DNA from: Limnohabitans sp.
Lineage (GTDB): Bacteria; Pseudomonadota; Gammaproteobacteria; Burkholderiales; Burkholderiaceae_C
NCBI RefSeq assembly: GCF_034680285.1
Contig: NZ_JAXITC010000002.1
Coordinates: 139,633 to 203,632, forward strand
Direction of reading: 5' to 3'
Length of the DNA stretch: 64,000 nt
Shown here: one piece after another, positions 57,299 to 61,959 of the stretch
Numbering within the stretch: the first letter of the stretch is position 1
Layout of the letters: each line of letters starts with the position of its first letter
Translations under genes and position numbers: made by a program
Notes under the pieces: model-generated
What the model was told of the DNA's origin: nothing
What the model saw: the letters and a program-made list of their open reading frames with translations, nothing else
The model's database searches: none

Positions 57299-59407
57299 AT
57301 GAACACCGCGACAACACCTCCTGTTTCTGTCACTGACGCCCCTCCTTATTTGCCGCAAATCCGGGTGTACCAAAACTGGCTGCGCGACAAGCGTGGCCTG
57401 AGTTTTGCCACCTACAACGACCTCTGGCGTTGGTCGGTGACCGAGCTGGACGCGTTTTGGCAAAGCATTTGGGATTACTTCGACTTCCAGTCGCCCACGC
57501 CTCACACCGCGGTGCTCGCCAACAACGTGATGCCCGGTGCCAAGTGGTTTCCGGGTGCCCAAACCAACTACGCTCACCAAGTCCTGCGCCATGTGCAGCC
57601 CGCGCATGACGCAGGGTTTTTGGCCGTCATCAGCCACAACGAAAAAGGCCTGCGCCGTGAGATGACTTGGCCCGAGCTGCGCCGCCAGGTCGCCGCCATG
57701 GCGCTGCACCTGCAGGCCCAAGGTGTGCAGCCAGGTGACCGCGTGGCGGCGTATCTGCCCAATATCCCCGAGGCCATGGTGGCGTTTTTGGCCACCGCCA
57801 GTGTGGGCGGCGTGTGGAGCATTTGCGCCCCCGACATGGGCACCAACGCGGTGCTCGACCGGTTCAAACAGATCGAGCCCAAAGTATTGATTGCGGTCGA
57901 CGGCGTGAGCTACGGTGGGCGCGACTTTGACCGCATGGGCGTGGTGCAGGAGTTGCGTGATGCTTTGCCCAGCGTGCAACACGTCATCATTCACGACAAC
58001 CTGGGCACCTTGGATCTGACCAACTGCGATGTGGGCAGCAGCGTGCAGATGTCGGCGATCATCGCGCGGGATGACGCCGAAGTGCAGGTCTTTGAGCCGA
58101 TGTGGCTGCCCTTTGACCACCCGCTGTGGATTGTGTATTCGAGCGGCACCACTGGCTTGCCCAAGCCCATCGTCCACGGCCATGGCGGCACGGTGATCGT
58201 GGCGCTGGCCAACAAAATTTTGCACAACGATATCGGTTGCAGCTACCACCCCAACAGCTGGGGCGAGCGCTTTCACTGGTACAGCTCGACCGGCTGGGTG
58301 ATGTGGAACGCACAAGTCGCGGGCCTGCTCAACGGCGTGACCTGCGTGATCTACGACGGCAACCCCGGCGGCAGCAAAGACAACCCGGACTGGGGCATTT
58401 TGTGGCGCATGGCGGCGCAGGAAAAAGTCACGTTTTTTGGCGCAGGCGCAGCCTACTTTGCCAATTGCCACAAAGCCGGTTTGGACATTTCCCGCAGCGG
58501 CGACCTGTCCCTGATCCGCGCCTTGGGCACCACCGGATCGCCCTTGTCGGCCGACACACAAACTTGGGGCGTGGAGCAATTCAAGGCCATTGGCACCGAC
58601 ATCTGGTGGTGCAACATTTCGGGCGGCACTGACTTTGCAGGCGCCTTTGTGGGTGGCCACCGCGAACTGCCGCAGGAGCCTGGCGTCATGCAATGCCGCG
58701 AACTCGGCTGCGCGGTCGAGGCCTGGAACGAAGCCGGTGAGCCGGTGATCGGCGAAGTGGGCGAGTTGGTCTGCACCCAGCCCATCCCGTCCATGCCGCT
58801 GTACTTTTGGAACGACAAAGACAACGCCCGCTATCTGGCCAGCTACTTTGAGATGTATCCCGCAGGCCATGGACGCCAACCTGGCGGCGGCGACGGCCCG
58901 GCCAGCATGGGCGGGGTGTGGCGACACGGCGACTGGCTGCGCATTGGCGACGCCAGTGGTCAGGGCGAAGGCTGTGTGATTTTTGGCCGCAGCGACGCCA
59001 CCATCAACCGCTATGGCCTGCGCATGGGCACCAGCGAGCTTTACAGCGCCGTCGAAGCCTTGCCTGAAGTCATGGACTCGATGGTCGTCGACCTGGAGTA
59101 CTTGGGCAAAGAAAGCTACATGCCGCTGTTTGTGGTGCTGCGCCCGGGCACGGCGTTTGACGAGACGATCAAAGCCAAGCTCAACAACGCCATCAAGGTG
59201 GCGCTCAGCCCGCGCTTCATACCCAACGAGATCTTTCAGGTGGCCGAGATTCCTCGCACCCTGTCCGGCAAGAAGCAGGAACTGCCGATTAAAAAACTCA
59301 TGCTCGGCCAGCCCCTCGAAAAAGTGGTTAACCGAGACGCCATGGCCAACCCAGGGTGTCTGGACTGGTATGTGGAATTGGCCAAGCAGCATTTGGCCAA
59401 GGTGTAA
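57299..59407 (+). CDS. Acetoacetate--CoA ligase
   Basis: YSSGTTGLPKPIVHGHGG, NISGGTD, WRHGDW, GRSDAT, RTLSGKKQE. Confidence 0.93.
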   Translation: MNTATTPPVSVTDAPPYLPQIRVYQNWLRDKRGLSFATYNDLWRWSVTELDAFWQSIWDYFDFQSPTPHTAVLANNVMPGAKWFPGAQTNYAHQVLRHVQPAHDAGFLAVISHNEKGLRREMTWPELRRQVAAMALHLQAQGVQPGDRVAAYLPNIPEAMVAFLATASVGGVWSICAPDMGTNAVLDRFKQIEPKVLIAVDGVSYGGRDFDRMGVVQELRDALPSVQHVIIHDNLGTLDLTNCDVGSSVQMSAIIARDDAEVQVFEPMWLPFDHPLWIVYSSGTTGLPKPIVHGHGGTVIVALANKILHNDIGCSYHPNSWGERFHWYSSTGWVMWNAQVAGLLNGVTCVIYDGNPGGSKDNPDWGILWRMAAQEKVTFFGAGAAYFANCHKAGLDISRSGDLSLIRALGTTGSPLSADTQTWGVEQFKAIGTDIWWCNISGGTDFAGAFVGGHRELPQEPGVMQCRELGCAVEAWNEAGEPVIGEVGELVCTQPIPSMPLYFWNDKDNARYLASYFEMYPAGHGRQPGGGDGPASMGGVWRHGDWLRIGDASGQGEGCVIFGRSDATINRYGLRMGTSELYSAVEALPEVMDSMVVDLEYLGKESYMPLFVVLRPGTAFDETIKAKLNNAIKVALSPRFIPNEIFQVAEIPRTLSGKKQELPIKKLMLGQPLEKVVNRDAMANPGCLDWYVELAKQHLAKV

Positions 59408-59451: not shown

Positions 59452-59796
59452 TCAAGGCGTTTGGCGTCTGAACAAACGCAAAAACGGTGCCAGTGCAACG
59501 CTTTTGATACGGCCAAACAAGGCAAGCAAACGGGTGACCAAAGCCCCTCTTTGGCCAAAAATGCGGCGCTGCGGATCGGCCTGTGGTTTGGGCAAATTCC
59601 AGCGGCTTCCTGGGCCCCAGATGCTGGTCACCACCAAATGAAGTGCTGCCAACAACAGCAGCACTTGCAAGCCAAACAGGAAGACAAAGCCCCATGCAAG
59701 ATCTGGCCACAGCTTTCGCATCAGCCACATGACCAAGGGCAGCAACAAACTGGCCGATGCGGCCAGCTTGACGCTCGAGGAAAGCCGTTCCAGCAT
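59452..59796 (-). CDS. Hypothetical membrane protein
   Basis: 114 aa with two hydrophobic segments; fills the gap downstream of dapD. Confidence 0.55.
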   Translation of the reverse strand: MLERLSSSVKLAASASLLLPLVMWLMRKLWPDLAWGFVFLFGLQVLLLLAALHLVVTSIWGPGSRWNLPKPQADPQRRIFGQRGALVTRLLALFGRIKSVALAPFLRLFRRQTP

Positions 59797-59809: not shown

Positions 59810-60787
59810 TCAGTTCTTGTGCAACTCGGCGTTCAACTCGCCCCAGCTCTTGTTGCGCGGAATGGCGTGCAAGGCGCCCGACTGTGAATCGCGGCGGAAC
59901 AGGATGCCGTTTTTGCCGGACAGCTCTTTGGCTTTCATGACCGAGCCATCGGGCATCTGAACGCGGCTGCCGCCAGTGATGTAGCAACCCGCTTCCACAA
60001 TGCAGTCGTCGCCCAGCGAAATGCCGATGCCCGCGTTGGCGCCCAGCAAGCAGCGCTTGCCGACCTTGATGACTTCTTTGCCGCCACCCGACAGCGTGCC
60101 CATGATGGACGCGCCGCCGCCGATGTCGCTGGCGTCATCGACCACCACGCCCGCGCTGATGCGGCCTTCGACCATGCTGGCGCCCAGCGTGCCCGCATTG
60201 AAGTTGCAAAAGCCTTCGTGCATGACCGTGGTGCCGCTGGCCAGGTGTGCGCCCAGGCGCACGCGGTCGGCGTTGGCTATGCGCACGCCGGACGGGATCA
60301 CGTAGTCGGTCATCTGTGGGAACTTGTCCACGCCTTTGATTTCCAAAATTTGGCCAATGGCGCGGGCCTTCATGCGGGCGGCAGGCACTTCGCTCACGGC
60401 GCAAGGGCCAAAGTTGGTCCAGGCCACGTTGGCCAGCAGGCCAAAAATGCCGGTCACGTTGGCGCCGTGCGGCAACACCAGGCGGTGGCTCAGCAAGTGC
60501 AGTCGCAGGTAAGCGTCGTGGGTGTCGGCAGGCGCGTCGGCCAGCGACTTGATCTCGGTTCGCACAGCCACCACGGTGGTGCTGCGCACAGCGCAGGCAC
60601 TCAGCGCCTTGGCCACGTCAGCGCCCAGGGCCGCCACAGCTTCGGCTTCGGTCAGTCGGGTGCTGCCGCTGGCGGCCACATCGCCAGCCAATTCGGGGGC
60701 AGGGAACCAGGTGTCCAGCACGGTGCCGTCAGCGGCGAGGGTGGCCAGGCCCGTGGCGCGTGCGCCGGTGGTTTGGAAAGTGCTCAT
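59810..60787 (-). CDS. dapD: Tetrahydrodipicolinate N-succinyltransferase, type 2 (actinobacterial-like)
   Basis: GLATLAADGTVLDTWFPAPEL, DAYLRLHLLSHRL, VDKFPQMTDY, RVRLGAHL, MVEGRISAG, hexapeptide repeats. Confidence 0.92.
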   Translation of the reverse strand: MSTFQTTGARATGLATLAADGTVLDTWFPAPELAGDVAASGSTRLTEAEAVAALGADVAKALSACAVRSTTVVAVRTEIKSLADAPADTHDAYLRLHLLSHRLVLPHGANVTGIFGLLANVAWTNFGPCAVSEVPAARMKARAIGQILEIKGVDKFPQMTDYVIPSGVRIANADRVRLGAHLASGTTVMHEGFCNFNAGTLGASMVEGRISAGVVVDDASDIGGGASIMGTLSGGGKEVIKVGKRCLLGANAGIGISLGDDCIVEAGCYITGGSRVQMPDGSVMKAKELSGKNGILFRRDSQSGALHAIPRNKSWGELNAELHKN

Positions 60788-60799
60788 GGGGTGCTCCGC

Positions 60800-60835
60800 A
60801 AAAGAAGGCCCGCCAGGATCTGAACAGGGCGGGCC
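60800..60835 (-). terminator. Rho-independent terminator after acuI/yhdH
   Basis: Minus strand GGCCCGCC-N13-GGCGGGCC followed by TTCTTTT. Confidence 0.7.
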
Positions 60836-60868
60836 GTTGAAAATCAGAAGGCGTGATTATCGGGGACT

Positions 60869-61855
60869 TCAGCGGTTGACGTTCACCACCACCCGCCCAC
60901 GCACCTGCCCGGCCAGAATTTCCGCCCCCAAGCCGATCGCGTCGGCCAGGCCCACTTCGCGGGTCATGCGCTCCAGCTGCGCGGTGTCCAGGTCTTGGGC
61001 CAAACGTGCCCAGGCTGCTTCGCGCAAAGCCCGAGGGGCCATCACGCTGTCGATACCCGCCAGAGTTACGCCGCGCAAGATGAAGGGCGCCACGCTCGAC
61101 GGAAAGTCCATGCCTTGGGCCAGGCCGCAGGCCGTGACCACGCCGCCGTATTTCATGCTGGCGCAGGCATTGGCCAGCGTGTGGCTGCCCACGGTGTCAA
61201 CCACGCCCGCCCAGCGCTCTTTGGCCAGGGGTTTGCCGGGGGCAGACAACTCTGCCCGGTCCATCACGTCGGATGCGCCCAGCTGGCGCAGGTAGTCGGC
61301 TTCTTGCATGCGGCCTGTGCTGGCCACCACGCGATAACCCAGCTTAGCCAACAGCGCGATCGCCACGCTGCCCACGCCGCCGCCCGCACCGGTGACCAAA
61401 ATGTCGCCACTGCCGGGTGTGACGCCGTGCTTCTTAAGCGCCATCACACACAGCATGGCGGTGTAACCGGCGGTGCCAATGGCCATAGCCTGGCGCGGGG
61501 TGAAGGCATTGGGCAACTTGACCAGCCAGTCCCCTTTCAGGCGCGCTTTTTGCGCCAAGCCGCCACTGTGGCTCTCGCCCACGCCCCAGCCGTTGAGCAC
61601 GACTTTTTCGCCCACATTGAACAGTGGGTGCTGGCTCTCGGTCACGGTACCCGACAGGTCAATGCCTGGTGTGAGCGGGAACTTGCGTACGACGGGCGAT
61701 TTGCCGGTGATGGCCAGGCCGTCTTTGTAGTTGAGGGTGGAGTAGTCCACCTGGACCGTCACGTCGCCTTCGGGCAAGGCGCTGTCATCGAGCGTTTGCA
61801 GCGTGCAGCGGTAACCGGCGTCGTCTTTGTGGATTTGCAGGGCTTGGTAGGTCAT
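60869..61855 (-). CDS. acuI: Acrylyl-CoA reductase AcuI/YhdH family (MDR oxidoreductase)
   Basis: [51 protein letters not shown]. Confidence 0.88.
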
Positions 61856-61959
61856 GGGCGGCGTTCCTGAAAGATGCGTAACTGTGCACCAAAACAGGTC
61901 CACGGGGTAGCGATGGTCGTCACCTGTGCGCTAGCATGTCATGGACTGAAAGGATGGCC

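Follow-up and report, generated by a model that had tools for sequence, protein, structure and literature searches.

An actinobacterial-type dapD gene in the betaproteobacterial genus Limnohabitans and its probable displacement of the native gene

The window gene and its family

The window analysed here is a stretch of 64,000 nucleotides from a Limnohabitans genome (C2:139633-203632, where C2 denotes the contig), and the gene in question, dapD, occupies positions 59810-60787 on its reverse strand (C2 199442-200419), well inside the contig. DapD carries out the first committed step of the succinylase branch, which leads to meso-diaminopimelate for peptidoglycan and to lysine, and it is a proposed antibacterial target. 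The reading frame opens with ATG and encodes 325 amino acids, among them the two N-terminal peptides, GLATLAADGTVLDTWFPAPEL and DAYLRLHLLSHRL, on which an initial annotation of this DNA had based its claim of a Mycobacterium-type DapD in a betaproteobacterium. By Pfam, the neighbouring genes encode a BenE transporter, an FAD oxidase, a PduO-type adenosyltransferase and an AMP-forming acyl-coenzyme A (CoA) synthetase, and further a zinc-dependent alcohol dehydrogenase (Zn-ADH)-family oxidoreductase, a serine hydrolase and an EamA transporter; there is no dap gene among them, in keeping with what that annotation had reported. We put at roughly 85% the probability that the ancestor of the genus gained this actinobacterial-type gene horizontally and that its native dapD was then lost.

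Against the NCBIfam model for the actinobacterial enzyme (TIGR03535, DapD_actino) the window DapD scores 464.5 bits, above the curated equivalog cut-off of 441.5, and the match spans profile positions 2-320 of 320. The score against TIGR03536, the gammaproteobacterial long form (DapD_gpp), is 364.9 bits, below the cut-off of 518.45 and confined to profile positions 71-340, and that against the E. coli-type model NF008808 is 24.6 bits, far under the cut-off of 204. Pfam recognises THDPS_M (PF14789, residues 118-157) and Hexapep_2 (PF14602, residues 240-271). The top solved structure is the DapD of M. tuberculosis (3FSX, E 2.5e-124), with which the protein aligns end to end (residues 4-325 against 4-319); 5E3P and then 3R5A, from P. 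aeruginosa, are the next. The protein thus appears to have the domain build of the TIGR03535 class, that is, a long N-terminal domain, a THDPS middle domain and a left-handed beta-helix of hexapeptides, and judged by its sequence it is a regular member of this known family, which bears out the likeness to the Mycobacterium enzyme claimed at the outset.

Distribution of DapD types and the ancestral dap locus

The source genome (3.16 Mb in 26 contigs, 99.99% complete) contains exactly one match to TIGR03535 in a profile search. The same genome has no match to TIGR00965, the E. coli-type family, and gives only weak hexapeptide noise with NF008808; a tblastn search of it with five E. coli-type DapD proteins from sister genera (E<=10) returned noise only, with no remnant of a native dapD. 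On these searches, which the initial annotation had suggested, the window gene is the only DapD gene in the genome.

Copies that are 93-96% identical occur in Limnohabitans strains G3-2, Rim47, Rim8 and Rim28, and a TIGR03535 match over cut-off is present in 31 of the 37 Limnohabitans genomes compared, our own included; TIGR00965 is absent from all 37. Three of the other six carry TIGR03535 fragments at contig ends, and the three that have no match are 73-84% complete. Elsewhere in the family the actinobacterial type was found in none of 120 genera (E<=1e-30), which leaves it in one of 121 sampled, and TIGR00965 is present in 17 of the 18 sister genera tested. Sampling of the order (401 genomes, 167 genera) produced three genera with a TIGR03535 match at E<=1e-30, two of them over cut-off, namely Limnohabitans and g225, a genus of another family. 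When 24 other families of the order were represented by one genome each, TIGR03535 was found in none and TIGR00965 in 23, the exception being a metagenome-assembled genome (MAG) that is 68% complete. Among 400 genomes of the class, ours alone exceeds the TIGR03535 cut-off, and 17 have a long form that falls below it (330-406 bits).

Both types of DapD occur together in two g225 genomes and in a MAG labelled Paraburkholderia (G316, G513 and G956). Four small freshwater MAGs (L022-L025) have the actinobacterial type only, and the tree described below places three of these (L022, L024 and L025) within the Limnohabitans clade. The mutual exclusion of the two types in Limnohabitans means replacement, and their coexistence in a few other Burkholderiales means a second copy. 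The transferred gene had originally been described as a replacement or a second copy; the first of these holds, there being no E. coli-type dapD in our genome or in any of the 37 and the native gene having been excised, and the second does not.

Two genomes from the wider sampling are worth recording in their own right. A genome of the same family (G069, genus g34; 2.6 Mb, 96% complete) has neither a TIGR00965 nor a TIGR03535 DapD, and may use another diaminopimelate route or a further class of DapD. In family f13 of the same order, a very divergent DapD-like protein of 346 amino acids (L098, at G551:C5:464890-465615) scores 224 bits against TIGR03535, is 42% identical over its C-terminal part and sits on a very long branch; its genome has no TIGR00965 match, and it may be a third form of DapD in the Burkholderiales.

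The place from which the native gene was lost can be identified. In seven of eight sister genera the order of genes is SMC (on the opposite strand), dapC, dapD (about 275 amino acids), a pilT-like ATPase gene (about 385 amino acids), dapE and two more conserved genes; in the remaining one (G061) the run from dapC to the pilT-like gene is the same, but dapE is missing from its place. An E. coli-type DapD of about 275 amino acids within a dap cluster is what the initial annotation had given as the norm for Burkholderiales, and it is indeed what lies between dapC and dapE in these relatives. On contig C1 of the source genome the same flanking genes are colinear, and the stop codon of dapC (TGA, 353884-353886) is followed by GCC and then by dapE, whose ATG begins at 353890 (C1:353884-353892), leaving a gap of 3 nucleotides where the sister genera have about 2 kb. 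Direct adjacency of dapC and dapE was seen in all five Limnohabitans genomes inspected, the others being G002 and G004 from subclade A of the genus and G001 and G003 from subclade B; the junction in G002 is identical (TGAGCCATG). Since the scar is found in both subclades, the loss of the native dapD predates the radiation of the genus. Across the genomes inspected dapC and dapE have been kept as a conserved pair. The native gene has been lost in this lineage and the rest of its pathway has been retained, which is the pattern by which displacement is recognised.

The pilT-like gene has been lost from the dap locus of Limnohabitans along with dapD, and only distant paralogues (30-44% identity) are left, on C8 and C21. 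In the sister genera (loci L147-L153) this ATPase, which starts MERILRLMAEKKASDVYLS, directly follows dapD (e.g., L148:8841-10088). We also note that the spacer between dapC and dapE in G004 (L185, G004:C63) contains a palindromic insert of about 140 nucleotides whose inverted repeats are long (GACCCCGGGTCAAGCCCGGGG ... CCGGGCTTGACCCGGCATCC) and which is reminiscent of a repetitive extragenic palindromic (REP) element or a miniature inverted-repeat transposable element (MITE).

Phylogenetic position, insertion site and predicted function

A maximum-likelihood tree was estimated with IQ-TREE from 90 sequences and 329 columns under LG+C20+F+G4 with posterior mean site frequencies (PMSF), and branch supports are given as ultrafast bootstrap/SH-aLRT (the Shimodaira-Hasegawa-like approximate likelihood ratio test). 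Its sequences are the copies of Limnohabitans and of other betaproteobacteria, those of named Actinomycetota, 27 drawn from an even sampling of this phylum, and gammaproteobacterial outgroups; a reduced set of 71 rows, from which the very long branches among the outgroups were dropped, agrees with it. All copies from Limnohabitans fall into a single clade (100/100). Beyond the immediate sister group of this clade, to which we return below, the next sequences out are those of Embleya, Yinghuangia, Streptodolium and a Streptomycetaceae strain (90/89), and then those of g225 (96/86). The clade that encloses all of these (100/98, and 98/99 in the reduced set) adds Streptomyces, Kitasatospora, Streptacidiphilus, Allostreptomyces and Actinocorallia, and outside it lie the Mycobacteriales, Pseudonocardiales and Nonomuraea (100/97) and deeper Actinomycetota. 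The window DapD is therefore not part of a broad, vertically inherited proteobacterial clade. Branch supports speak strongly for its nesting in an actinobacterial one, and the overall case for this nesting is moderate to good. As the family is broad across actinobacterial orders and rare in the Burkholderiales, the direction of transfer would have been from the former to the latter. The cross-phylum transfer proposed in the initial annotation is supported, then, by the rarity of the gene in its family and order and by its nesting in a Streptomycetaceae-like clade, with the provisos that topology tests are only marginal and that the immediate donor was possibly another member of the Burkholderiales.

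The Limnohabitans clade divides into two subclades, whose DapD are about 69-74% identical to each other. Identities between the same genomes are 73-74% for dapC, 75-77% for dapE and 76-78% for the synthetase gene that neighbours dapD; the divergence of DapD is in line with these values and therefore fits vertical descent since a single gain. Limnohabitans as defined by GTDB itself consists of two deeply split lineages, between which DapD, DapC and DapE are about 69-77% identical; subclade B contains G001, G003, G010 and the MAGs L022-L025, and it takes in several MAGs whose labels say no more than 'Comamonadaceae', 'Burkholderiales' or 'Betaproteobacteria'.

The insertion site tells the same story on one of its two sides. 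The AMP-forming acyl-CoA synthetase gene (acetoacetyl-CoA-synthetase-like by Pfam; 57299-59407 on the forward strand), which is convergent with dapD, forms a conserved downstream border of the insertion in both subclades, and the order dapD-synthetase-PduO-FAD oxidase is kept in L016, L019-L023 and L025. Because the genus forms one clade with full support and this downstream synteny is common to both of its subclades, we favour a single gain. The upstream side varies within the genus: in other species the Zn-ADH gene is separated from dapD by between 1 and more than 7 kb, or is missing altogether from the locus.

In the window, the Zn-ADH gene, which belongs to the Zn-dependent alcohol dehydrogenase/quinone-oxidoreductase family by Pfam, lies upstream of dapD at 60869-61903 on the reverse strand, and an 81-nucleotide spacer (60788-60868, same strand) separates the two. 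The spacer contains a terminator-like GC hairpin and T-run (60828-60809, reverse strand), directly followed by GGAG about 8 nucleotides before the ATG of dapD. The hairpin probably ends the upstream Zn-ADH gene. There is no consensus sigma-70 promoter in the spacer, nor any riboswitch or other Rfam family around dapD, and dapD may be transcribed by read-through from the Zn-ADH gene or from a promoter that departs from the consensus. An open reading frame (ORF) for a hydrophobic product of 114 residues with no family match (59452-59796, reverse strand) lies in the interval from dapD to the synthetase gene. It is found only in our genome and in the closest relative, L016 (82% identity), and for that reason we do not regard it as part of the transferred unit; in L020 the corresponding gap, of about 120 nucleotides, is too short for it, and it may not be a real gene.

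Several observations weigh against the history that we propose, or at least against its details. When the Actinomycetota are forced to be monophyletic the likelihood falls by 34.6 lnL with the long-branch outgroups (p-AU 0.076 in the approximately unbiased, AU, test) and by 28.9 without them (p-AU 0.033), which is to say that actinobacterial monophyly is rejected only marginally. Support for Embleya and Yinghuangia as neighbours is moderate, and drops from 90/89 to 63/75 in the reduced set. The family is not universal in its presumed source phylum, where it was found in 28 of 201 evenly drawn genomes. The composition of dapD (GC 0.656, and 0.828 at third codon positions, GC3) places it at about the 98th percentile of the long ORFs of its genome (means 0.599 and 0.728), and the neighbouring, native-looking Zn-ADH and EamA genes are similarly GC-rich, so that composition is a weak sign of foreign origin. 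Finally, the sister of the Limnohabitans clade is a group of Xylophilus, Paraburkholderia-labelled MAGs and a Pseudomonadota MAG (88/86), and since the closest relatives outside the genus are thus other Burkholderiales, the immediate donor may be among these.

This last point is the basis of the strongest rival account, according to which Streptomycetaceae-like donors passed the actinobacterial-type gene to the Burkholderiales on one or a few occasions, after which it spread among the latter (to Xylophilus, Paraburkholderia-like bacteria and g225), often as a second copy, and thence reached Limnohabitans. Besides the sister group, it is favoured by the finding that a single betaproteobacterial clade can be forced at a cost of only 0.77 lnL (p-AU 0.46), so that one entry into the Burkholderiales followed by spread is not distinguishable from several entries, and by the carriers of both types, G316, G513 and G956, which look like the expected intermediate. 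Against it, support for a betaproteobacterial clade is weak (49/64 in the reduced set) and the g225 copies lie outside the Embleya group in the free tree. The integration sites also differ: no flanking genes are common to the dapD loci of Limnohabitans, Xylophilus rhododendri, the Paraburkholderia MAG, G513 and a Streptomycetaceae genome, and no mobile-element genes were recognised among the flanking genes examined. We give such an indirect route somewhat less than even odds; it would alter only the donor step of the history that we prefer.

Among the other carriers, G513 (genus g225) has its second-copy dapD at the end of a tight co-directional run (L188:4396-9565) of two oligopeptide ABC-transporter ATPase genes, an alpha/beta hydrolase gene and a gene for an M20 metallohydrolase, and this could be a peptide-salvage operon. 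A co-transferred dapE-dapD cassette was considered here and rejected: the M20 peptidase matches generic M20 hydrolase and glutamate-carboxypeptidase models, all below cut-off, and is not DapE, and neither the actinobacterial loci nor that of Xylophilus (L016-L095, L187) has a homologue of it beside dapD. Two further placements in the tree may be mentioned. The DapD of L099, L100 and L101, from the gammaproteobacterial families f140, f111 and f130, are about 300 amino acids long, score 401-406 bits against TIGR03535, below cut-off, and branch near or among deep Actinomycetota, away from the Pseudomonas type, with weak support (82/37, 79/91). P0073, a protein from a MAG labelled Janibacter terrae, is nested among the DapD of Streptomyces (98/74), a position that suggests a binning error or transfer within the phylum.

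With regard to function, the residues that bind succinate, 2-aminopimelate and CoA have been named for the DapD of P. aeruginosa (PMC3281039), and we mapped them through an ungapped alignment to 3R5A (chain index = native + 3, query index = native - 14). Asp168, Asn209, Glu221, Arg223, Ala226, Gly238 and Ser241 correspond to D154, N195, E207, R209, A212, G224 and S227 of the window DapD and are all conserved, as are the CoA contacts Glu279, Gly287, Lys304, Arg317, Arg318 and Ser320 (E265, G273, K285, R298, R299 and S301); Lys289 is represented by R275, and M. tuberculosis DapD likewise has Arg there. The ratio of nonsynonymous to synonymous substitution rates (dN/dS) is 0.10-0.22 in comparisons with the window copy and 0.04-0.06 within subclade B, which shows that dapD is under purifying selection in the genus. 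Given these ratios and a match over cut-off in all sampled Limnohabitans genomes of 90% completeness or more, we conclude that the acquired gene is maintained by selection. Its sequence and the fact that dapC and dapE have been kept lead us to infer that it encodes a working tetrahydrodipicolinate N-succinyltransferase, which is presumably essential. One could suppose instead, from the fact that no dap gene adjoins it, that the protein is an acyltransferase with some other role and that diaminopimelate is made by a DapD-free route through Ddh or DapL. We consider this improbable, given the conservation of every mapped substrate- and CoA-binding residue, the score above an equivalog cut-off, the strong purifying selection, and the retention as an intact pair of dapC and dapE, which would be useless without DapD.

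Still less probable is an origin in an ancient proteobacterial 'type 2' DapD clade handed down vertically, with the actinobacterial appearance of the gene an effect of sampling. Some Gammaproteobacteria do have a related long form, TIGR03536, as their native DapD (17 of 400 genomes of the class), and L099-L101 represent gammaproteobacterial lineages that reach about 400 bits against the actinobacterial model. Vertical inheritance of this kind is hard to reconcile, however, with the lack of the actinobacterial type in 120 of 121 genera of the family and in nearly all of the order, or with the syntenic dap locus, which holds the E. coli type in sister genera and a deletion scar in Limnohabitans; moreover, the window DapD is over the TIGR03535 cut-off and under that of TIGR03536, and the gammaproteobacterial forms branch far off. 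Contamination, binning or misassembly of actinobacterial DNA, which the unusually high GC and GC3 might bring to mind, can be dismissed for practical purposes, as the genes flanking dapD share 76-98% identity with their counterparts elsewhere in Limnohabitans and dapD itself lies well inside its contig. Isolates and complete genomes of the genus have it too, its divergence from the actinobacterial sequences compared is in every case about 27-37%, and the genome has no other DapD.

Proposed history and comparison with known systems

In proposing how the present arrangement arose, we need to account for a foreign gene at one locus and a precise deletion at another. The ancestor of Limnohabitans would have gained an isofunctional actinobacterial-type dapD horizontally, beside the acyl-CoA synthetase gene and away from the dap operon; it would have come ultimately from Actinomycetota of a Streptomycetaceae-like lineage, perhaps with another member of the Burkholderiales as intermediary. 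A stage with two copies would have followed, of the kind that g225 and the Paraburkholderia MAG still display. Once the cell had a second enzyme for the reaction, the native E. coli-type dapD would have been dispensable, and a single deletion could have removed it together with the adjoining pilT-like gene, leaving dapC and dapE abutting. Since then the foreign gene would have been inherited vertically under purifying selection as the sole DapD, its product feeding N-succinyl-2-amino-6-ketopimelate to the native DapC and DapE. That gain preceded loss is suggested by the essential nature of the pathway.

It is tempting to go further and to see in the actinobacterial-type dapD a recurrently mobile 'spare part' of the Burkholderiales, present as a second copy in g225 and the Paraburkholderia-labelled MAG and as the sole copy in Limnohabitans, with its fixation in this abundant genus of the freshwater plankton driven by selection and not by neutral loss. 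Possible drivers would be insensitivity to an inhibitor aimed at the E. coli-type DapD, or kinetics or regulation that differ once the gene stands outside the dapC-dapD-dapE operon. We offer this as speculation and think it unlikely.

The case brings no new enzyme, pathway or mechanism. What it does show is that a homologue from another phylum can take the place of a core gene for making peptidoglycan and lysine and become fixed in an entire, ecologically dominant freshwater genus. Relatives with the native gene only, relatives with both genes and a lineage with the foreign gene only, the last with a clean scar in its operon, can be observed side by side, and the preservation of these three stages makes it a good teaching and model example of xenologous displacement. 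In combination, the actinobacterial-type dapD and the dapC-dapE junction also provide a genomic marker for the genus. In the open-access literature we found no earlier report of dapD displacement in Limnohabitans or the Comamonadaceae, and prior mention is possible.

The closest known counterpart of the enzyme is M. tuberculosis DapD (Rv1201c; 3FSX/3FSY), which it resembles in full-length homology, in near-identical active-site stretches and in its three-part build, with an N-terminal globular domain, THDPS_M, a left-handed beta-helix of hexapeptide repeats and a C-terminal domain. It differs in that the variable linker (residues ~33-70) is slightly longer, and its gene sits in a betaproteobacterium in a context without dap genes. 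The DapD of Corynebacterium glutamicum (5E3P, E 8.2e-106, aligned over residues 8-325) is of the same class but has a shorter N-terminal linker (in a chain of 302 residues); Corynebacterium also has the Ddh route (PMC8396482). P. aeruginosa DapD (3R5A, TIGR03536) shares a homologous catalytic core (E 6.9e-88 over residues 50-324) and identical active-site residues, but its N-terminal domain is unlike that of the window DapD and its class branches far off in the tree. The E. coli-type DapD (TIGR00965, about 275 amino acids), which is the native enzyme of the Burkholderiales, has the same reaction and belongs to the same left-handed beta-helix fold family, but its N-terminal domain is short and its sequence match to the window DapD marginal.

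The event itself is a xenologous gene displacement, a known kind of event of which this is a clean but ordinary case. As in such displacements generally, an acquired isofunctional homologue has replaced a resident gene of an essential pathway, the other genes of which remain native. The Limnohabitans case is distinctive in its preserved scar, in the integration of the new gene away from the old locus, and in the existence of two-copy relatives that resemble the intermediate stage.

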